Shown here: piece by piece, positions 4,708 through 14,941 of the stretch
Layout of the letters: each line of letters opens with the position of its first letter
How positions within the stretch are numbered: position 1 is the stretch's first letter
NCBI GenBank assembly: GCA_019561565.1
Contig: JAHEPY010000002.1
Span: forward strand, 1 to 24,000
Origin: Methanothermococcus sp. SCGC AD-155-M21
GTDB lineage: Archaea > AGJL01 > Methanococci > Methanococcales > Methanococcaceae
Length of the DNA: 24,000 bases
Reading direction: 5' to 3'
Translations under genes and position numbers: made by a program
Notes under the pieces: model-generated
Told to the model about the DNA's origin: nothing
Seen by the model: only the letters and a program-made list of their open reading frames with translations
Database searches by the model: none

Positions 4708-6546
4708 ATGAAAGGAGCGGAGGCCGTAATAAAAGCATTGGAGTATGAAAAAGTAGATGTTATATTTGGATATCCTGGAGGAGCCCTATTGCCATTCTAT
4801 GATGCCCTGTATGATAGTGATCTTATACACATACTTACAAGGCATGAACAGGGAGCAGCCCATGCAGCAGATGGATATGCAAGAGCCAGTGGAAAGGTTG
4901 GAGTATGTGTTGCAACCTCTGGACCTGGTGCTACCAATCTTGTAACAGGCGTGGCCACAGCCCATGCTGATTCCTCTCCCATAGTGGCAATTACAGGACA
5001 GGTGCCCACTAAATTAATAGGTAATGATGCCTTTCAGGAGATAGATGCCTTAGGATTATTTATGCCAATTGTAAAGCACAATTTTCAACTTAGGAGTGCT
5101 AAGGAAATACCTGAAACCATCAGATCTGCATTTAATATAGCAAAAACAGGGAGACCTGGACCTGTGCATATTGATTTACCTAAGGATGTGCAAGAGGAAG
5201 AATTAGATTTGGATAAATATCCAATACCTGCAAAGGTGGAGTTGCCAGGTTATAAGCCTACAAAGATGGGACATCCAAAACAGATTAAATTAGCCTCATC
5301 CCATATATCTAAAGCCGAGCGCCCTGTAATCATAGCCGGTGGCGGTGTAAATATAGCAAATGCCACCTCAGAACTTATGCAACTTGCAGAATTATACAGT
5401 ATCCCAGTATGTACCACACTTATGGGAAAGGGTTCCTTTCCAGAGGATCATCCATTGGCTCTTGGAATGGTGGGCATGCATGGAACCAAACCTGCAAACT
5501 ATGCTGTTTCTGAAAGTGATTTGTTAATAGCCATAGGATGTAGATTTTCAGATAGAATAACTGGAGATATTAATAGTTTTGCCTCCCATGCAAAAATTAT
5601 ACATATTGATATAGATCCTGCAGAAATTGGGAAAAATGTTAGGGTAGATGTTCCCATTGTTGGTGATGCAAAACTTATATTAAATAATATTGTATCTCAT
5701 CTAATTAAAATGAATATGAATAATAATAATGCAAATAGGGAGTGGATAGAATATCTACAATCCTTAAAGAAATCCTGTACTCCTAAGATGGATTATAGTG
5801 ATGTACCTATAAAGCCTCAAAGAATAGTTAAGGGGCTAATGAATGTTATAAGGGAATTAAACATAGAGAAAAGATCCATAATAACCACAGATGTTGGACA
5901 GAACCAAATGTGGATGGCACATTACTTTAAAACCCATTTTCCAAGGTCTTTCCTATCCTCTGGGGGATTGGGAACCATGGGCTTTGGATTTCCCTCTGCA
6001 ATAGGTGCCAAGATAGCAAAACCTGATTTTAAGGTAATATCTATTACTGGGGATGGGGGCTTTATGATGAATATTCAAGAATTGGGAACCATTGCAGATT
6101 ATAATATACCTGTTGTAATATGTTTATTTGATAATAGGACCCTTGGAATGGTATATCAGTGGCAGAACATATTCTATGGAAAGAGACAGTGTAGTGTTAA
6201 TTTTGGAGAGACTCCTGATTTCGTAAAGGTTGCAGAGGGTTATGGAATAAATGCCCTAAGGATAACAAATCCTGAAGAAATAGAGGAATGCCTTAAAGAG
6301 GCCCTACTTAGTGATAAGCCCTATTTACTTGACTTTGCCATAGATCCATCTGAGGCATTATCCATGGTGCCTCCAGGGGGTAAATTAAAAAATATAATAG
6401 ATCCCATTACTGAGCATCCTAATGAAAAAGTTATATGCTTTGATGAAATAAAAAGGAGATTCTTGGAAAAAGACAGTAATAAAAATGAAGATACTCTATC
6501 GGAGGAATTATCTGAATCTGAGAAGGATGAGGGTATAAAGGTGTAG
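4708..6546 (+). CDS. ilvB: Acetolactate synthase (AHAS) large subunit, TPP-dependent
   Basis: Motifs are GYPGGALLPFYDAL, HEQGAAHAADGYARASGKVGVCVATSGPGATN and the TPP motif GGLGTMGFGFPSAIGAK...ITGDGGFMMN. The small subunit follows directly. It ends in an acidic, Ser-rich C-terminal tail. Confidence 0.93.
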   Translation: MKGAEAVIKALEYEKVDVIFGYPGGALLPFYDALYDSDLIHILTRHEQGAAHAADGYARASGKVGVCVATSGPGATNLVTGVATAHADSSPIVAITGQVPTKLIGNDAFQEIDALGLFMPIVKHNFQLRSAKEIPETIRSAFNIAKTGRPGPVHIDLPKDVQEEELDLDKYPIPAKVELPGYKPTKMGHPKQIKLASSHISKAERPVIIAGGGVNIANATSELMQLAELYSIPVCTTLMGKGSFPEDHPLALGMVGMHGTKPANYAVSESDLLIAIGCRFSDRITGDINSFASHAKIIHIDIDPAEIGKNVRVDVPIVGDAKLILNNIVSHLIKMNMNNNNANREWIEYLQSLKKSCTPKMDYSDVPIKPQRIVKGLMNVIRELNIEKRSIITTDVGQNQMWMAHYFKTHFPRSFLSSGGLGTMGFGFPSAIGAKIAKPDFKVISITGDGGFMMNIQELGTIADYNIPVVICLFDNRTLGMVYQWQNIFYGKRQCSVNFGETPDFVKVAEGYGINALRITNPEEIEECLKEALLSDKPYLLDFAIDPSEALSMVPPGGKLKNIIDPITEHPNEKVICFDEIKRRFLEKDSNKNEDTLSEELSESEKDEGIKV

Positions 6547-6719
6547 TTTTAGGAATATATAAAAAAATAATATTATTATAAAAATAAAAATTAAAAAAAT
6601 TAGAATTAATAAAAAAATAAAAGAATTATTAAAATAAAAAATAAAATAATTAATTTAATTTATTCAATTTAGGGCATTATTCCATAGGAACATGCCACAA
6701 TATAAAATCTGGTGGTTTT

Positions 6720-7268
6720 ATGGAATCTATAAAATCAGAAAAAAAGGAAAAAAATAATGAAACCCATACTCATATAATATCTGTGTTGGTATTGAACAAT
6801 CCAGGAGTATTGCAGAGAATTGCAGGACTTTTTACAAGAAGAGGCTATAACATCAGTAGTATTACAGTTGGCTCTACTGAATCTCCAAACCTGGCAAGAA
6901 TGACCATAGTAGTCAAAGGAAATGATAAGATTCTTGAACAGGTGGTAAAACAACTTAATAAACTTATAGAAGTTATTAAAGTAAGTGATTTAAGTGTTAA
7001 TAAGTGTGTAAAAAGGGAACTTTGCCTTATAAAAATCCATGCTCCAAATGAAAGTAGTAAATCCCAGATAATACAATATACCAACGTATTTAGGGGAAAA
7101 ATTGTGGATCTAAGTCAGGAGTCTTTAACAGTGGAAATAACTGGAAATAGTGATAAAATAAATGCATTTGTGGATTTAGTTAGAAACTTTGGGATTAAGG
7201 AGATGGCCCGTACTGGTTTAACAGCCCTTATGAGAGGTCCCAAGATATTAAAATCAAAAAAATCTTAG
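6720..7268 (+). CDS. ilvN: Acetolactate synthase small (regulatory) subunit, ACT domain
   Basis: [34 protein letters not shown] is the typical AHAS small-subunit ACT start. The gene lies immediately downstream of ilvB. Confidence 0.9.
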
Positions 7269-7314
7269 GTTATTAATTTTTAATGAATAATAATATATAA
7301 TTTTCGGTGAAATA

Positions 7315-9312
7315 ATGAAGTTCAATTTAAAAGGAAAAATAATATTCAGTAGGGAGATAAGTGAGGATATTAAAAAGGATATAGAAGAAGTATTGAAAAA
7401 CAGTAGAGACATTTTCCTAAAGGGAGTGCCAAAGGGAAAGGAGGATGAGGCCGCTAAAATAATAGATTATGATTTTCAAGGAAATGAACTTTTATTACAC
7501 ATAGATTCAGGTACTTATGCCAGGGCCCATGAGGCCATTATAAGGTTGAAGAAGCCCATTATTGAGAAGATTGGGAAGAAACATAAGATAGGTATTAGAG
7601 GTATCCTCATTGAGAACTATGATATCAACATACCTGTAGGATATAATATAGTAATGAGTATGAACTTACAAGAAATAGAATCACTATCTAAGAAATTACA
7701 AGAATTACCACTTATGAAATTACGAGAAATGAAATTGCAAGAATTACCACTTATGAAATTACGAGAAATGAAATTACCGGATATGAAATTGCAAGAAATA
7801 GAATCGCAATATAAGAAATTACGAGAAATGAAATTACCGGATATGAAATTGCAAGAAATAATATCACAATATAAGAAATTACAAGAAATAGAATTACTAT
7901 ATAAGAAATTACAAGAAATAGAATCACTATCTAAGAAATTACAAGAAATAGAATCACTATCTAAGAAATTACAAGAAATAGAATCGCAATATAAGAAATT
8001 ACAAGAAATAGAATCACTATCTAAGAAATTACAAGAAATAGAATCGCAATATAAGAAATTACAAGAAATAGAATCGCAATATAAGAAATTACAAGAAATA
8101 GAATCGCAATATAAGAAATTACAAGATACGAAGGTACAGGATACAGAAGCACTAGAATTAAAATTTACATTCGGTGATATATGTGAGAGAGAACTTAAAA
8201 GAAATATCATAGACCGGACCATAAAGTTTGTAAAAACCCATTTAGAGTCAGAAAAGGAAAAGGATTTAACCTTTGATGTTTGTGCCATAGAACCAGGTAC
8301 CATAGTAAGTGAATACAAAAGAAAAAGAGCTATTACATTTAAGGAGGATCCAACAGATGTTGCAGAGAAACTTGGATGGGTTAGAAGGTTCATAGGAAAA
8401 GGACAGTGGTTTTACACTCCTCCAATGACAAAGTTATTTAGAACCTTTGAGGAACTTATAATGGAGGAGTGTATTGATAAAATAGGATTTGATGAATGCC
8501 TATTCCCTAAGTTGATACCTCTGGAGGTTATGTATAAAATGAGATATTTGGAGGGACTTCCTGAGGGCATGTATTATGTATGTCCTCCAAAAAGGGATCC
8601 TCTAATGTTTGAGGAATTTGTAAATGAAATGATGATAAAGAAGGAAATACCCATTGAAAAATTAAGGGGCCTATTGAGGGATCCAGGATATGTATTGGCT
8701 CCTGCCCAGTGTGAGCCATTCTATCAATTCTTTGATCATCAGTTGATTGATGTAGATAAACCTATAAAATTTGTGGATAAAAGTGGTTGGACCTATAGAT
8801 GGGAAGGAGGAGGAGCAAAGGGGCTTGATAGGGTTAATGAATTTTTAAGGATAGAGTGCGTAGAAATGGGAAGTCCAGAGTTTGTTGAAAGGGTTAGGGA
8901 TGATACCTTAAAATATGCAGAAAAACTTGCTGAAAAACTTGATTTAGAATATTGGACTGAGGTTGGAGATGATCCCTTTTATTTGGAAGGTAGAAAAAAG
9001 GAAGATAGAAACATAGAGTTCCCAGAGGTACCTAAGTACGAAATGAGATTATGGCTACCTCACATAAAGGATGAAAGAAAAGGAGTTGCAGTAACCTCTG
9101 CAAATGTCCATGGAACCCATTTTGTTGAAGGTTTTGGCATAAAGGACTATAGGGGGAGAAAGGTTTGGAGTGGTTGCACTGGTTATGGTATTAGTAGATG
9201 GGTAGTGGGATTCTTGGCCCAGTATGGATTTAATTACGATGATTGGCCAGAGATGATAAAGAAAAAAATTAAGAAACTACCAGAAATTCCAAAGGTAATT
9301 AATTGGCCTTAA
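7315..9312 (+). CDS. serS: Seryl-tRNA synthetase, methanogen type, carrying a ~150-aa repeat insertion
   Basis: It aligns by eye with methanogen-type SerRS through [64 protein letters not shown] and [20 protein letters not shown]. The 665-aa length is well above the roughly 500-520 aa I recall for this family. Confidence 0.9.
7663..8126 (+). repeat. In-frame tandem repeat inside serS, built from 30-, 24- and 15-nt modules that all begin AAATT(A/G)
   Basis: There are near-identical 30-nt units, aaattacaagaaatagaatcactatctaag and ...tcgcaatataag ([10 protein letters not shown] / [10 protein letters not shown]). Shorter modules [13 protein letters not shown] and KLPDM are interspersed. This is seen directly in the sequence. 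Confidence 0.95.
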
Positions 9313-9432
9313 ATAATGACTTAAAAAAAAATTATAAAAAATAAAATAATAATTAAAAATAGATATAAAAATAAAATTATAAAAAATAAGATTTTGAATA
9401 ATAAAGGAATAAAAACATAAAAATAAATTAAA

Positions 9433-9590
9433 ATACCTATAAATTAGTAAAAACATAAAAAGTAAAAGTCCCATTATTAATTCCTTATGCTCCCAAGCAC
9501 TGGAAAAAGGATAAAACCCTTTTACAGGATATCTTATGGAAGTTCATATTGATACGGTAGGGATTTAAAGCATCTTTTTATTGATGTTTT
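9433..9590. repeat. Copy B of the paralogous intergenic element (candidate small-RNA gene; strand unresolved)
   Basis: It shares the 5' block and internal blocks with 1177-1330 (see copy A). An internal hairpin aaaagg-ataaaac-cctttt lies at about 9505-9523. The T-run ctttttatt lies near 9575-9583. A perfect tttatata box on the - strand lies at 9620-9627. Confidence 0.4.
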
Positions 9591-9792
9591 ATTCTCTTTA
9601 TTATCTTGGTTAAGGCAATATATATAAACTTGGCAGTATTCTCTTTATATTCTATTTATTGTCTGTATTATATCCTTTTATTTTATTATTGTCCTATATT
9701 TTTAGTTATTTATTTATAGATCTTAAGTTAATTTTATTTATTCTATTAAATTTTTTTAATTTTTTTTATAATATTAAATTATAGGGGATTTT

Positions 9793-10959
9793 ATGAATAT
9801 TGGAGTTGTTGTTCATGGGCCTGAAATAGTGGATAATGGATATGCTGAAAAAATTTTAAAAATATTAAGGGAATTCTCAAAGGAATATGGCCTAAAAATA
9901 AACATAAATGCCAAGATTGGGGGTAATATTGGAAGAACTGCCGTAATAGATAGAAATTTAGAAAGGATCATAGATATATCTGAAAAACTTTATCCCTCTC
10001 AATGTTTAAAGAAATTAAAGGATAATGATATATTACTCTTAATAAACTATGGCAAATCCAAAGAAACTGGGCATACCTTTGGAAGGATTGTTATAGAAAG
10101 GGCAAACATAGATAAACCCATAATCCAGATAGAGAGGCCAGGGGAAGTTGATGGATCTATAATAATATGGAATAAAGAAAAAATGGAGGAGGGCAGTGAA
10201 AAATATTTAAATAAATTAATAGAATACCTATCAAATAAATTGAATTTAAATAGTGAGGAATGCATAAGTAATGGTTTAACCCTATGGGAGGAGGATGGCA
10301 AGGTATTTAGAAAAATAAGTACTGTTGATGCTGGGGAAAATATTATGGTAAATGGCATAATAATAGGTTATGCAATAAAAAATCCAATTATACTAATATC
10401 TAAAGATAATAGGTTGATTGATGTAATTAATGGAGAAATAAAAAAAGAGGGTATGGAACGCTTAGGTCCTATAGATTTAAAAAATGCCATTATAAAAACA
10501 GGTATTTTAAGGAGAAATATTCCCAATATTCCATACAACATAGGGGGCATAAAAAATATGGAAAATAAACCCTCCATTAAACTATCTGAAAGGGGGAGTG
10601 TTCTTATTTTATGGGATACAAAAAGAGATATTTTAAAGGAGTTAAATAATAAAAATATATCCAGTATAATCACAATAGGCAGTGATACAACCATAATTTA
10701 TGGCAATATGTTATGGAGATTTAATATTAAAATAATAGGAATAGTTGAGGATGATTTCCATAATCATAACATAATTAAAAATCCCTTAATAACCAAGGGT
10801 TCTAAGATATTTTTAATAAAAAATAAAACTAATGCTCCCATTTATAAATTAATATGGAATAATTTAAAAAATAAAGAATTAAAGTACGATGATACTTTAA
10901 ATTACATTAATAATCTGTTGGATAGAAATAATGTTGATTATGATATTATTAATAGTTAG
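9793..10959 (+). CDS. Hypothetical protein (conserved-archaeal look, no family recognised)
   Basis: 388-aa ORF with the SD-like aggggatt before the ATG. It is Asn/Ile/Lys-rich but not low complexity. No nuclease, helicase or Cas-type motifs were recognised. Confidence 0.65.
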   Translation: MNIGVVVHGPEIVDNGYAEKILKILREFSKEYGLKININAKIGGNIGRTAVIDRNLERIIDISEKLYPSQCLKKLKDNDILLLINYGKSKETGHTFGRIVIERANIDKPIIQIERPGEVDGSIIIWNKEKMEEGSEKYLNKLIEYLSNKLNLNSEECISNGLTLWEEDGKVFRKISTVDAGENIMVNGIIIGYAIKNPIILISKDNRLIDVINGEIKKEGMERLGPIDLKNAIIKTGILRRNIPNIPYNIGGIKNMENKPSIKLSERGSVLILWDTKRDILKELNNKNISSIITIGSDTTIIYGNMLWRFNIKIIGIVEDDFHNHNIIKNPLITKGSKIFLIKNKTNAPIYKLIWNNLKNKELKYDDTLNYINNLLDRNNVDYDIINS

Positions 10960-11186
10960 AATTTTCTTATTTTTATTATATGAGGATATATTCTTTTATT
11001 GAGATGAATTAATATTAAAAAAATTAAAAATTATAATAAAATTTAATTTTAGAATTTTAATTTAGTTTTTTATATTCATATATTTAAATTTATTAAAAAT
11101 TATTATTATTTTTTATTTTTTTAATTATTTTATTTTTTTTATTAAATAATTTATAAACAAAAAATAATGGGTTTCCATCCCACTAT

Positions 11187-11235
11187 CTCAAAATTCCTTC
11201 GGAATTTTTACGATTTACTCGCTTCGCTCGTAAAT
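11187..11235 (-). repeat. 49-nt insert inside CRISPR repeat R1 (composite repeat 11171-11249)
   Basis: The sequence ctcaaaattccttcggaatttttacgatttactcgcttcgctcgtaaat splits the repeat between ...cactat and ggtctgattttaac. It is identical to the copy at 14344-14392. Confidence 0.95.
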
Positions 11236-11782
11236 GGTCTGATTTTAACTAGAGCAATAGAAACTGGTATTCCGTTAATACCTGCAAGTTTCCATCCCAC
11301 TATGGTCTGATTTTAACTGTATAAATGCATTGAGTTTAGGACAATCACATTTTGCGTTTCCATCCCACTATGGTCTGATTTTAACTATATATTGAAACAT
11401 CATATTGCCATAAGAATTTTAAGTTTCCATCCCACTATGGTCTGATTTTAACATATTGGATTTTCTATTGATTTTGATTTATTGCATAATTAGTTTCCAT
11501 CCCACTATGGTCTGATTTTAACTTAAAGGATTAGTAATGGATTTAGAGAAGATATAAAAGTTTCCATCCCACAATGGTCTGATTTTAACTATTTTGATTA
11601 TGATGATGCATATACAAGTATATTAAAGTTTCCATCCCACTATGGTCTGATTTTAACATATAATAAATCTTTTAAATATAAAAATCAAATATTTAATTTG
11701 TTTCCATCCCACAATGGTCTGATTTTAACAAACCAATACGAGCGGTTATGGAAAGAATTTTAAAAGGTTTCCATCCCACAAT

Positions 11783-11831
11783 CTCAAAATTCCTTCGGAA
11801 TTTTTACGATTTACTCGCTACGCTCGTAAAT
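11783..11831 (-). repeat. 49-nt insert inside CRISPR repeat R9 (composite repeat 11767-11845)
   Basis: This is the same 49-mer at the same repeat position, with one substitution (T to A at 11820). Confidence 0.95.
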
Positions 11832-14343
11832 GGTCTGATTTTAACATAGTAATGAATATATAGAATTTTTAATAAGTAGTATAGGTTTCCATCCCACAAT
11901 GGTCTGATTTTAACCTCCCGGATATGATTTAAATCAAGAAACTAATAAATCGTTTCCATCCCACAATGGTCTGATTTTAACACTGTTAGATTTTTAGGCC
12001 CATCTCCAGTTATAGTCTGTTTCCATCCCACAATGGTCTGATTTTAACCCATTAATGTCCAGGACCCATATAAAAACCTGGTTTTGTTTCCATCCCACAA
12101 TGGTCTGATTTTAACAAGTTTCTCCAAACTCCTCAACTTCAGCAATTAATAGGTTTCCATCCCACAATGGTCTGATTTTAACAGAGTATGATCACATAAA
12201 AAGGATAAAAGTTAAATGTTTCCATCCCACAATGGTCTGATTTTAACTTAATACCCTCACTCATGCATTTTCCCTCTTTCCTGGTTTCCATCCCACAATG
12301 GTCTGATTTTAACGGGGTTCCTGCCAGGTCCTTTTGATTCAAAACCCATCTCCAGTTATAGTCTGTTTCCATCCCACAATGGTCTGATTTTAACCCATAC
12401 ACTCAAGAACAATCTGACAGCACAGAATTCAGTTTCCATCCCACAATGGTCTGATTTTAACATGTAGCAATGATATTATCCATAGTTTCCAAATTCGACG
12501 TAGTTTCCATCCCACAATGGTCTGATTTTAACAAATTATAAAATCTATGAACCTAACTTATTACGAGTTGTTTCCATCCCACAATGGTCTGATTTTAACG
12601 TATTTATTTTAACTTTTAATTTATATGATAATCCAGGTTTCCATCCCACAATGGTCTGATTTTAACTCACTGCCCCAAATGTGCAGATTTATGAATATTC
12701 CTCGTTTCCATCCCACAATGGTCTGATTTTAACTTCATGAGGGGAGAATTTTTAGGAGAGAACTTAGTCAAGTTTCCATCCCACAATGGTCTGATTTTAA
12801 CAATAGATAAGTATAATATTAATTTATATGACTATAAATGTTTCCATCCCACAATGGTCTGATTTTAACGATATATTAGATGATAAAATCCTTGAGATAA
12901 TACCTGGTTTCCATCCCACAATGGTCTGATTTTAACATCCTCCCTCATCATTAGAAAAAACCAGATGTAAATGGTTTCCATCCCACAATGGTCTGATTTT
13001 AACATTAATTTTCCAATATCCTTGCTTTTGATATATTCAAGTTTCCATCCCACAATGGTCTGATTTTAACATGCACTGTATCCTCTTGCATCCCAATTCC
13101 CTGAATTCATGGAAGTTTCCATCCCACAATGGTCTGATTTTAACTGATTACGTGATTTATACAGATGCCAATACCTATAAGTTTCCATCCCACAATGGTC
13201 TGATTTTAACTACCTTTAAGGTTATACTTTAATTTTAATAATTCTAATGTTTCCATCCCACAATGGTCTGATTTTAACCGTATGAATATACCCATATAAA
13301 AAGTTTCCATCCCACAATGGTCTGATTTTAACTTTACATAAGAAGAAACTAAAACATACCCTGCATTTTTGTTTCCATCCCACAATGGTCTGATTTTAAC
13401 GATGTTTAATGGAACACACAATGAACAATTCAGGAATTTGTTTCCATCCCACAATGGTCTGATTTTAACTATTTTTTTTCATATGCTCATATGTCTTTAT
13501 CATCTGTTTCCATCCCACAATGGTCTGATTTTAACAAGATTATATATAAGAATATGATTATACAGAAATAGGTTTCCATCCCACAATGGTCTGATTTTAA
13601 CAAATCGACAAGTTGTCTGTAAAAGAATTAATAGAACTAAGTTTCCATCCCACAATGGTCTGATTTTAACAATTAAATGAAAATGAAATAAAACAAATAA
13701 TAGAAGATTGTTTCCATCCCACAATGGTCTGATTTTAACCTTCTACTTAATAAAGTTATATTTCCATCTCTAACTTCGTTTCCATCCCACAATGGTCTGA
13801 TTTTAACTCGTATTTGCTTGGAAAAGATATTTTAAAGGTGATACAAGTTTCCATCCCACAATGGTCTGATTTTAACTTTAACACTAAGACTGATAAAGGG
13901 ATATACATAAAAATGATGTTTCCATCCCACAATGGTCTGATTTTAACAAAACCCATGCGTACTAGTAATATACATATTCTTTTAATTAGTTTCCATCCCA
14001 CAATGGTCTGATTTTAACTGTAATCATACCAGCATCAACTGTACAGATACTATACAAGTTTCCATCCCACAATGGTCTGATTTTAACTGGAAATTAATAA
14101 GTAATCCTATTAAACACAAATTTGAGTTTCCATCCCACAATGGTCTGATTTTAACATACCATATAAGATTATACACAAGTACCCCAGAAGCATTGTTTCC
14201 ATCCCACAATGGTCTGATTTTAACTGCATGCCCTATATTCGTTGAATTACGGCTATTTTTGTTTCCATCCCACAATGGTCTGATTTTAACTAGAAAAATA
14301 TAGAAATGAAATAGAAAGTATTTATGAGTTTCCATCCCACAAT

Positions 14344-14392
14344 CTCAAAATTCCTTCGGAATTTTTACGATTTACTCGCTTCGCTCGTAAAT
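14344..14392 (-). repeat. 49-nt insert inside CRISPR repeat R46 (composite repeat 14328-14406)
   Basis: This is the same 49-mer at the same repeat position. Hairpin aaaattcc (14347-14354) / ggaatttt (14358-14365) is followed by T5. A second inverted repeat is tttacga (14364-14370) / tcgtaaa (14385-14391). Confidence 0.95.
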
Positions 14393-14441
14393 GGTCTGAT
14401 TTTAACTACCCAGACTGAGATAAACCTAACAATAACCAACA

Positions 14442-14471
14442 CGCTTCGCTCGTAAATGGTCTGATTTTAAC
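14442..14471 (-). repeat. Truncated leader-adjacent unit: the last 16 nt of the insert fused to the 14-nt right half of the repeat
   Basis: The unit reads cgcttcgctcgtaaat + ggtctgattttaac. The left repeat half (gtttccatcccacaat) and 33 nt of the insert are absent. Confidence 0.9.
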
Positions 14472-14519
14472 AGTTAATAATTTTCTTTATTTTACTATAA
14501 AGAAGGTTGTATCTTCTCC

Positions 14520-14527
14520 TATATAAA
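14520..14527 (-). promoter_or_regulatory. Candidate TATA box (TTTATATA on the - strand) for pre-crRNA transcription
   Basis: This is a perfect methanogen box-A consensus about 50 nt upstream of the first array unit. The predicted start is about 25 nt before the repeat. AT-rich background makes chance matches likely. Confidence 0.35.
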
Positions 14528-14561
14528 CCTTTCTATCTCGAATCTATAATAAGGGCACTTC

Positions 14562-14569
14562 TATATAAA
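14562..14569 (-). promoter_or_regulatory. Second candidate TATA box (TTTATATA on the - strand) in the leader
   Basis: This is a perfect consensus octamer, with the same caveat as the first box. Confidence 0.3.
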
Positions 14570-14941
14570 GACCTGCGACTTGATAATCCTCCTTATTTTA
14601 ATCCACACAACCCTAAAATTAATTAAATAAAATAAATAAAGAAAAATTATAAGGAAAACACAATAAACCCAAATAAACTTACCTAATTAATCTAAATCTC
14701 AATAAATTATTAAATCTAAATATATAAAATAATCATAATCCACAATCGATATGAGATCAAAAATCCTATCTTATTTTAATATTTAACAAATTAAAAAAAT
14801 CTTAAAAATAAAACCAAGACCCTACTCCAAGATAAAATAATCCAAAAAAATAAAACACATAGAAAATATTATAAATTTTAAAATTTAATAAAAAGATTAA
14901 GTTTATATAATTTTATTTTTTATTATAATAAAAGGGAGATT

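Follow-up and report, generated by a model that had tools for sequence, protein, structure and literature searches.

We asked how one and the same 49-nt sequence came to interrupt three non-adjacent repeats of a CRISPR array in the archaeon Methanothermococcus sp. SCGC AD-155-M21, and what such an insert may do to the array that carries it. The stretch analysed, called the window below, comprises positions 1 to 24,000 of contig JAHEPY010000002.1. In the reading that we favour, which we regard as about evenly poised between right and wrong, the insert is a tiny site-specific element resembling repetitive extragenic palindromic (REP) sequences and palindrome-associated transposable elements (PATEs), and belongs, as a version restricted to its lineage, to a much wider class of two-hairpin units that measure 45-55 nt and are built on a 19-nt hairpin.

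The array was recognised by its regular identical repeats, its unique spacers of similar length (range 24-51 nt, mode 37, mostly 36-39 in the repeat/spacer table), the presence of a leader on one side and a tag-like repeat end. The 3' end of the repeat, ATGGAAAC, resembles the 8-nt tag AUUGAAAC carried by type I-B CRISPR RNAs (crRNAs) (PMC3479195). About 400 nt past position 14471 match the leaders of three other arrays at 84-93%, which places the leader at the high-coordinate end and makes R1 the trailer-end repeat; in four arrays the conserved leader adjoins the GTTAAAAT side of the repeat. Judging from the tag likeness and the leader side, the minus strand is probably the crRNA sense strand. 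Using a script that seeks both repeat halves, GTTAAAATCAGACC and then ATTGTGGGATGGAAAC on the sense strand, we found 46 full repeats, comprising 43 plain repeats of 30 nt and three composite repeats of 79 nt (R1, R9 and R46) in which the insert separates the halves. Pattern search returned the 49-mer in all three, with one base changed in R9, at 11820, and gave no match in shuffled sequence. The change turns a GAA triloop into GTA, which is still a GNA triloop.

The insertion point is the same in all copies, between nt 14-16 and 15-17 of the 30-nt repeat, and the flanks read GACC/ATTTAC and TTTTGAG/ATTG (the slash marking the boundary). The junction between insert and repeat is ambiguous by AT, corresponding either to a 2-nt duplication or to none. 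No terminal inverted repeats are present, the first 11 nt agreeing with the reverse complement of the last 11 nt at 3/11 positions, and the insert has no coding capacity. It folds, as RNA or as DNA, into two hairpins (z = -1.9 to -3.2); the plain repeat has next to no structure (-2 kcal/mol, z = -0.1). On the sense strand, hairpin A is followed by CGTA, hairpin B and GAG. The two hairpins lie 0-5 nt from the ends of the insert and are unrelated in sequence, and both are closed by GNA triloops; GCGAAGC and CCGAAGG, which they contain, are "mini-hairpin" sequences of extreme stability as DNA (PMC13037366). The spacers flanking R1, R9 and R46 all differ, and both repeat alleles are occupied (CACTAT in R1; CACAAT in R9 and R46). 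Neither hairpin core was found again in the 24-kb window. A preliminary description of this DNA had claimed the three copies and their single difference, the repeat counts, the different flanking spacers and both occupied alleles, the ambiguous junction without inverted repeats, the contrast between a self-complementary insert and an unstructured host repeat, and the lack of a further copy in the 24 kb, and it proved accurate on each of these points.

The same composite repeat is present in a second genome. A DUF2117 protein encoded beside the trailer is 93% identical to that of Methanothermococcus sp. SCGC AD-155-C09 (next best match, 59%), and at least four contigs of the single-cell assembly of this strain (loci L060, L075, L100 and L119) contain the insert in full, lodged at an identical position in the same repeat. 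The composite repeat of L060 is the last of 46 repeats. L075 contains two tandem arrays, the second of which ends in a composite repeat; the last repeat of the first is degenerate and carries no insert, and with the homologous trailer behind it represents an empty site in a paralogous module. Locus L119 shows a leader followed by a single composite repeat without spacers, in which the insert matches at 46/49 and three changes break both hairpins. About 1 kb off in L119 there is another solo composite repeat, which has a trailer and is likewise present on L100. Since L100 is syntenic with positions 5370-11249 of the window at 92-95% nucleotide identity, its solo composite repeat is the ortholog of R1. 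In total, the insert occupies 5/6 array ends or solo repeats of AD-155-C09, including the orthologous trailer-end repeat, and none of the approximately 85 internal repeats of L060 and L075, a distribution that reveals a preference for array termini. All eight copies of this lineage among the matches listed sit in CRISPR repeats. A thermolithotrophicus-like locus has no array at the corresponding place.

The insert was identical (49/49) in five array-end copies, next to homologous trailers that are 80-90% identical. Its presence in both genomes and its invariance beside diverged trailers indicate that it is real and that, at R1, it goes back at least to the divergence of the two genomes, unless it was re-acquired there. 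Either selection or renewal may have kept it intact. In array 2 of L075, the repeat half adjoining a perfect insert has decayed to 13/16. Three independent insertions are not needed, as a trailer-end copy exists at the orthologous site of AD-155-C09 and composite terminal repeats are usual in paralogous arrays, so that inheritance combined with recombination between repeats can explain R1 and possibly R9 and R46. Spread of one insertion by gene conversion or recombination, the former listed as an option in the preliminary description, is still a viable alternative after this comparison. The region of L119 at 50-1177, which corresponds to the end of L100, shows two composite repeats about 1 kb apart flanking a ferritin-like gene, with no normal repeats between them; one has a leader, the other the orthologous trailer. 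We considered whether the leader-composite adjacency of L119 could be the ortholog of that in the window and rejected this possibility, the leader of the window being closer to the other leaders.

At the leader end of the array, an extra half-repeat (14458-14471) is directly preceded in coordinate order by 16 nt of the insert (14442-14457). The order on the sense strand is leader, GTTAAAATCAGACCATTTACGAGCGAAGCG (30 nt), 35 nt of sequence unique in the window, and composite repeat R46. This 30-nt hybrid repeat is identical to nt 1-30 of R46, and divergence begins at nt 31. The repeat of the window carries GACCA at positions 11-15 and GTGGG at positions 18-22, and the insert stands exactly between these motifs. 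In the type I-B system of Haloarcula hispanica, whose 30-bp repeat is GTTTCAGACGAACCCTTGTGGGTTTGAAGC, duplication begins at the leader junction, depends on AACCC at 11-15 and as a rule stops a set distance from GTGGG (18-22). Insertion of at least 4 nt between AACCC and GTGGG abolished adaptation in this organism, and mutated far halves led to duplications of 30-31 bp at low efficiency (PMC4872114). The Cas1-Cas2 proteins of Pyrococcus furiosus make paired cuts 30-31 bp apart even at non-CRISPR sites (PMC6698737).

By analogy with these systems, the hybrid repeat is best explained as what a single integration by Cas1-Cas2 should leave behind, given a 30-bp distance between the cuts, at a time when the composite repeat was adjacent to the leader. 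The first 16 nt of the insert had been described as a truncated fourth copy; they are indeed present, but rather than a decayed copy they would form part of a 30-nt hybrid repeat produced by a ruler-type duplication. A deletion could also have produced the hybrid, provided that it stopped by chance at nt 30 and left a spacer-sized remainder. Scanning viral contigs with both halves of the 35-nt unit gave no protospacer. As the insert splits the counterparts of the motifs by which the repeat is measured in Haloarcula, the element would freeze an array when next to the leader. Adaptation would thus come almost to a halt at a composite repeat adjoining the leader, and the lone hybrid unit would record a rare ruler-only event, in which one spacer would still have been integrated with the second cut falling 30 bp from the leader junction, inside the insert. 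The leader and composite repeat without spacers in L119 would fit such a nearly complete block.

Parts of the insert have a much wider distribution. One genome per species was scanned with the 19-nt core of hairpin A, TTACGAGCGWAGCGAGTAA, which yielded at least 119 loci with the consensus TTAC-GA-GCGWAGC-GA-GTAA, compared with approximately 4-9 expected by our own estimate for a uniform-composition library of the same size. The hairpin of the insert is therefore not confined to this genome but occurs in both domains. The matches listed come from Clostridia, Bacteroidales, Patescibacteria, Gammaproteobacteria, Planctomycetia, Omnitrophota, methanogens, Altiarchaeota and Aenigmarchaeota, and are often found on several contigs of a genome. 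When only the occurrences not forced by the query were counted within the listed loci, the TTAC/GTAA stem was found 17 times versus 33 for all other stems together; this strong preference for one stem indicates that the whole 19-mer, and not the core alone, is the conserved module. Its contexts vary: it tips REP sequences, caps lineage-specific long hairpins, lies near tRNA genes or in tRNA-intron-like positions, or precedes start codons. In the Methylococcales metagenome-assembled genomes (MAGs) L014, L037, L084 and L095, the 19-mer forms the tip of classical-REP-like (GTAG-type) sequences, GTAGGCCGGAATAAGACT-(19-mer)-AGCGTTTCCGGC.

Several individual occurrences deserve mention. The hairpin lies 3-4 nt upstream of an opposite-strand ATG in L121-L126 (metagenome) and L066 (Patescibacteria), for instance ...GTAAAT-cac-ATG, which is the position expected of a ribosome-binding site. 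It interrupts, on reading by eye, a tRNA-like 5' region in L048 (Aenigmarchaeota). Phage RB43 carries several unannotated hairpins of the GA-GCGAAGC-GA type between uvsY and gene 24 (L129 601-640 and 730-770), and one of the hairpins of RB43-like T4-type phages matches hairpin A at 22/23. The phage PeSL cassettes were considered as the same hairpin and rejected, since their published stem-loop consensus sequences differ.

Units put together much like the insert are found in clostridia. Among the matches listed, 44 bacterial units of 45-54 nt (mode 50) consist of the 19-mer followed by a second hairpin with a conserved base and a variable upper stem. The changes in this second hairpin are compensatory, both partners differing in 5 of 12 pairs, with 98% of cells paired and none of 500 shuffles attaining the value observed; a GNA triloop usually closes it. 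The left flank of the units ends in NTA and the units themselves in TTA, their end being fixed by the search pattern, and this boundary echoes the AT/AT ambiguity of the CRISPR insert. Twenty of the listed units share a single insertion nucleotide, which follows GGATATAA where the D-arm ends, in a partial tRNA-Arg(CCU) copy. The partial copy adjoins an intact one, in two different duplication layouts, which suggests that at least two independent events took place at the same nucleotide. Seven listed units directly precede another unit, and others stand in unrelated contexts. Loci with the same flanking genes contain one, two or three units whose second hairpins differ. Given this fixed site, tandem stacking and variable number, the clostridial units behave as tiny insertion sequences with a preferred site. 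Examples of an intact tRNA-Arg(CCU) gene accompanied by a partial duplicate that is split after GGATATAA by 1-3 units of about 50 nt are L005 5563-5791, L064 5412-5684 and L012 3100-3390.

When its junction is drawn after AT, the CRISPR insert is 49 nt long, starts with TTAC and ends with AT, as does its left flank. It thus combines a length within 45-55 nt, a TTACGAGCGWAGCGAGTAA start, a second hairpin and an end that repeats the last 2-3 nt of the left flank, a match that is partly imposed by the query. From size, order of the parts, TTAC boundary and triloops, we read it as probably the same kind of element as the clostridial units. A broader proposal, which we advance only tentatively and consider doubtful, is that these sequences form one mobile family of about 50 nt, made of two hairpins and encoding no protein, that is shared by Bacteria and Archaea, homes into structured-RNA genes (tRNA-Arg(CCU) and CRISPR repeats) and freezes arrays when adjacent to the leader.

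If the insert is a small mobile element, units of this type would spread as tiny site-specific insertion sequences that leave only a 2-3-nt repeat of the flank and may stack in tandem. They would be moved in trans by an enzyme recognising DNA hairpins (an HUH/Y1-type transposase, as for REPs and IS200/IS605, a family that leaves neither inverted repeats nor a real target duplication), probably through a single-stranded DNA hairpin intermediate. Their target in this lineage would be the CRISPR repeat, and the copies, which are found mainly in the trailer-end repeat, would persist there because insertion would be harmless. Trailer-end copies may even be of benefit, as they would set two stable hairpins ahead of a third, in which the last half-repeat pairs with the trailer, immediately upstream of the T-run that would end the pre-crRNA. 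The internal copies R9 and R46 would derive from new insertion or from recombination between repeats. For this lineage such a mobile element is plausible, its active mobility being unproven. Of the earlier suggestion of a tiny element specific for the CRISPR repeat, the size, the layout and the 19-nt hairpin shared with the clostridial units stand; no copy outside CRISPR repeats and no internal repeat occupied in one genome and empty at the orthologous place in the other were found.

Several observations weigh against the mobile-element reading. Neither the 49-mer nor hairpin A was found outside CRISPR repeats in approximately 56 kb of this lineage. Viral contigs scanned with each hairpin gave 0 matches; BLAST with the 79-mer gave none in plasmids and, in phages, only a 23-nt hairpin match in RB43-like phages; and the 6 matches of a metagenome scan with the 23-nt hairpin A included none from Methanococcales or from CRISPR arrays. 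The search for outside copies that had been proposed earlier therefore recovered the insert in the arrays of AD-155-C09, but no 49-mer in viral contigs, plasmids, phages or the metagenome. Near the at least 119 loci, all-against-all BLAST of 3449 open reading frames detected no recurrent protein family or transposase, only local synteny groups. The insert has no GTAG or GTGG beside its hairpin, in contrast to REP sequences, GTAG being present only inside the loop of the R9 variant, and its end palindromes are dissimilar, unlike those of typical IS200/IS605 ends. The 19-mer query fixed part of the similarity to the clostridial units, so that archaeal-clostridial homology would follow from architecture and is not proven. 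The integration rules are applied by analogy from Haloarcula and Pyrococcus, the loci covered showing no cas genes of the host that would define its CRISPR subtype. Finally, an orthologous terminal repeat occupied in two genomes, together with most paralogous array ends, suits a single old insertion equally well.

Such a single ancient insertion at a trailer end is a possible, if somewhat unlikely, explanation. The insert would have become a fixed and useful part of the module, likely as a stable hairpin pair protecting or terminating the 3' end of the pre-crRNA, and would have spread without ongoing transposition by duplication of modules, recombination between repeats and fusion of tandem arrays, R9 and R46 being former array ends. 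The distribution agrees well with this scenario: composites are found in 5/6 array ends or solo repeats of AD-155-C09 in addition to R1, the ortholog of R1 also carries the insert, the leaders form one paralogous family and the trailers another, tandem arrays able to fuse exist (L075), and no copies were found outside CRISPR repeats. Perfect conservation of the insert next to trailers diverged by 10-20% suggests purifying selection, the copy located beside no array has decayed to 46/49 with both hairpins broken, and the terminal repeat and trailer form a third hairpin followed by a T-run. However, arrays grown from a composite founder would have filled with hybrid repeats, and the related bacterial two-hairpin units behave as insertions at several unrelated sites. 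The decayed repeat half beside the perfect insert in array 2 of L075 also speaks against gene conversion and suits either a recent arrival or selection on the insert only.

The position of the insert exactly between the repeat halves, its strong conservation and its stable structure on both strands could alternatively reflect a functional variant of the repeat, whose hairpins would serve as a module for pre-crRNA processing, protein binding or internal termination or regulation. It would act between two Cas6b binding sites or against antisense transcription, the plus strand having TTTTT after hairpin B; Shao et al. (2016) reportedly found that Cas6b of M. maripaludis binds a non-stem-loop repeat at two sites. 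We judge this unlikely, as only 2/45 internal repeats of the window and 0/~85 in L060 and L075 carry the insert, no Rfam family matches it, the trailer already has long T-runs, and a leader-proximal copy should damage adaptation. Even less probable is an intron-like insert removed from pre-crRNA by the archaeal splicing endonuclease at a bulge-helix-bulge motif, so that the repeat would be normal again after splicing. The boundaries of the insert are precise, and the same hairpin occurs in an apparent 37/38 intron of a tRNA-Ala(GGC)-like gene of an Altiarchaeota MAG (L072, minus strand, ~2460-2600 of the printed segment; read by eye). On inspection, however, the junctions (5' exon ...CAGACC; intron end ...AAUUUUGAG) can form neither the 4-bp central helix nor an exon-exon helix, the predicted fold consists of two independent hairpins, and units of the same type exist in Bacteria, which lack the splicing endonuclease. 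Assembly is difficult across repeats, and mini-hairpins of the GCGAAGC type are known to interfere with sequencing (PMC13037366), but the unique spacers flanking the three copies and the recurrence of the composite repeat on four contigs of the independent single-cell assembly of AD-155-C09 leave hardly any room for an assembly or sequencing artefact, the condition under which the preliminary description would have withdrawn its observation.

The array belongs to a set of leader-array-trailer modules, found in the window, L060, L075 and L119, that are scattered among housekeeping genes (leaders 84-93% and trailers 80-90% identical). No cas genes were detected in the window; only housekeeping genes are present there and beside the arrays of L060, L075 and L119, and the genes around the array of the window include those for a SepRS-like class II tRNA synthetase, acetolactate synthase, SRP54, a subunit of RNA polymerase, ribosomal proteins and an elongation factor of the EF-G/EF-2 family. 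The start of the trailer pairs with the last repeat half to form a stem followed by a T-run (terminator-like match at 11161-11189), and folding predicts three hairpins in a row at the 3' end of the array. The short-read contig of the window's own strain ends within the leader. Rfam 15 gave no match at the gathering threshold for the window or 18 loci, and chance-level matches only at E up to 10; searches at gathering and permissive thresholds, extended from the window and the 18 loci to the composite repeat and to a tandem array from Clostridia, returned only tRNAs and one unrelated pemK motif.

Table 1. Positions of the CRISPR array of the window and of its composite repeats, hairpins and flanking parts.
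Feature	Position	Strand	Remarks
CRISPR array	11171..14471	(-)	46 full repeats and one hybrid unit; minus-strand repeat reads GTTAAAATCAGACCATTGTGGGATGGAAAC
Composite repeat R1 (79 nt)	11171..11249	(-)	trailer end, CACTAT allele; insert 11187-11235, exact 49-mer
Hairpin B of the R1 insert	11190..11208	(-)	AAAATTCC-GAA-GGAATTTT; predicted 8-bp stem, GAA triloop (CCGAAGG)
Hairpin A of the R1 insert	11213..11235	(-)	ATTTAC-GA-GCGAAGC-GA-GTAAAT; predicted 6-bp stem, tandem G.A pairs, GCGAAGC mini-hairpin
Composite repeat R9 (79 nt)	11767..11845	(-)	CACAAT allele; insert 11783-11831, one change at 11820
Composite repeat R46 (79 nt)	14328..14406	(-)	CACAAT allele, formerly leader-proximal; insert 14344-14392, exact
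35-nt unit between hybrid repeat and R46	14407..14441	(-)	interpreted as the newest spacer; length within the spacer range
Leader-adjacent 30-nt hybrid repeat	14442..14471	(-)	GTTAAAATCAGACC+ATTTACGAGCGAAGCG: 14-nt 5' half-repeat and first 16 nt of the insert
Leader	14472..14874	(-)	member of a paralogous leader family; 84-93% identity to the sequences upstream of the first repeat of L060, L075 array 2 and L119
Trailer	11047..11170	(-)	common to paralogous arrays; alignment of six array ends

Other irregularities were noted in and around the array. The spacers at 11982-12018 and 12314-12364 share their final 20 nt (cccatctccagttatagtct), and the second is abnormally long (51 nt); two acquisitions from overlapping protospacers or a small rearrangement could account for this. 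The spacer between R30 and R31 (13279-13302) is unusually short, at 24 nt compared with the mode of 37. In the tRNA-synthetase gene (7315-9312), the segment 7636-8177 of the window (approximately 540 nt) is opposed to only about 100 nt in L100 (2267-2367), or cannot be aligned, and may be an inserted or fast-evolving segment. L100 also contains approximately 426 extra nt (5780-6206) between the DUF2117 gene and the trailer of AD-155-C09, corresponding to position 11046/11047 of the window.

If the broader proposal of a mobile family is true, the insert would be the smallest known element that disables, or has been domesticated by, an adaptive immune locus. An insertion of less than 50 nt may cap an array at its trailer end or block it at its leader end. 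As a natural repeat mutant, the locus indicates where an archaeal integrase places the second cut once it can no longer reach the distal half of the repeat, namely 30 bp from the leader junction. Software for the detection of arrays will miscall the insert as spacers or broken repeats. The 19-nt hairpin appears to head a widespread class of tiny elements, and if the hairpins stabilise the 3' ends of pre-crRNA they would offer a compact module for engineered arrays in archaea. Searches of the literature by sequence string and by topic gave no description of an insert in CRISPR repeats or of the 19-mer; as far as we found, inserts of this kind and the 19-nt module appear undescribed in the searchable literature, which agrees with the earlier remark that no described class of sub-50-nt inserts inside CRISPR repeats was known. 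To our knowledge, the clostridial two-hairpin units at tRNA-Arg(CCU) have not been described either.

How does the insert compare with established systems? CRISPR arrays are known to be interrupted by mobile elements, and their last repeat often decays. Known insertion sequence (IS) and miniature inverted-repeat transposable element (MITE) insertions in arrays are larger, have inverted repeats or transposases, and do not occur at one nucleotide of the repeat in several arrays; degenerate terminal repeats reflect random mutation, whereas the terminal repeat is here interrupted identically each time. A DDE-type MITE was ruled out, there being no inverted repeats and the flank repeat being 2 nt here and 2-3 nt in the bacterial units. 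We also ruled out a kink-turn or L7Ae site, the tandem G.A pairs forming a symmetric internal loop without bulge, and rejected a hammerhead-like core and an integron attC site on sequence inspection.

The insert resembles REPs and bacterial interspersed mosaic elements (BIMEs), which depend on REP-associated tyrosine transposases (RAYTs, HUH Y1 transposases), in being short, non-coding and hairpin-forming, in its GCGNAGC-type tips, known from several enterobacterial REPs (PMC2817692), and in the composite units formed by adjacent hairpins; the 19-nt hairpin itself caps the GTAG-type REP sequences of Methylococcales. It differs from them in that neither of its hairpins is an inverted copy of the other and in that, among the matches listed, no high-copy dispersal of the insert outside genes was seen in this lineage; no RAYT gene was found within the 8-kb loci. 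With the PATEs derived from IS200/IS605, among which 52-bp terminal-only IS605-type elements of Haloquadratum walsbyi may still move (PMC3119063), it shares an archaeal host, a length of about 50 bp, near-terminal palindromes, the lack of inverted terminal repeats and of coding capacity, and insertion beside a short specific sequence, perhaps without real target duplication. The 52-bp PATEs consist of one fused palindrome and are traceable to full-length IS copies, unlike the CRISPR insert, whose hairpins differ and come within 0-5 nt of its ends, a far smaller distance than in IS608; the loci examined yielded neither a parental IS nor TnpA.

The clostridial units at tRNA-Arg(CCU) share with the insert its size, the identical 19-nt hairpin at one end, a second hairpin usually closed by a GNA triloop, an end that repeats 2-3 nt of the left flank, and a fixed insertion point in a structured-RNA gene. 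They differ in the base of the second hairpin, in the linker and in their target (a tRNA gene copy or another site). Their G.A-rich strand is antisense to the tRNA, whereas that of the CRISPR insert is sense to the crRNA, and they stack in tandem, which was not seen for the CRISPR insert. As regards the Cas1-Cas2 rulers that set repeat length in Haloarcula hispanica I-B (PMC4872114), Pyrococcus furiosus (PMC6698737) and E. coli I-E (PMC5039180), these are known from assays, whereas the hybrid repeat is a single natural event. The far cut of Haloarcula is measured from GTGGG; here GTGGG stands 49 nt away and the cut lies 30 bp from the leader junction, as in promiscuous or off-target events. 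The likenesses are a 30-bp repeat with GTGGG at 18-22 and a C-rich motif at 11-15, a hybrid unit that corresponds to a 30-bp duplication from the leader junction, and an insert placed between the two motifs, precisely where insertions of at least 4 nt abolished adaptation in experiments.

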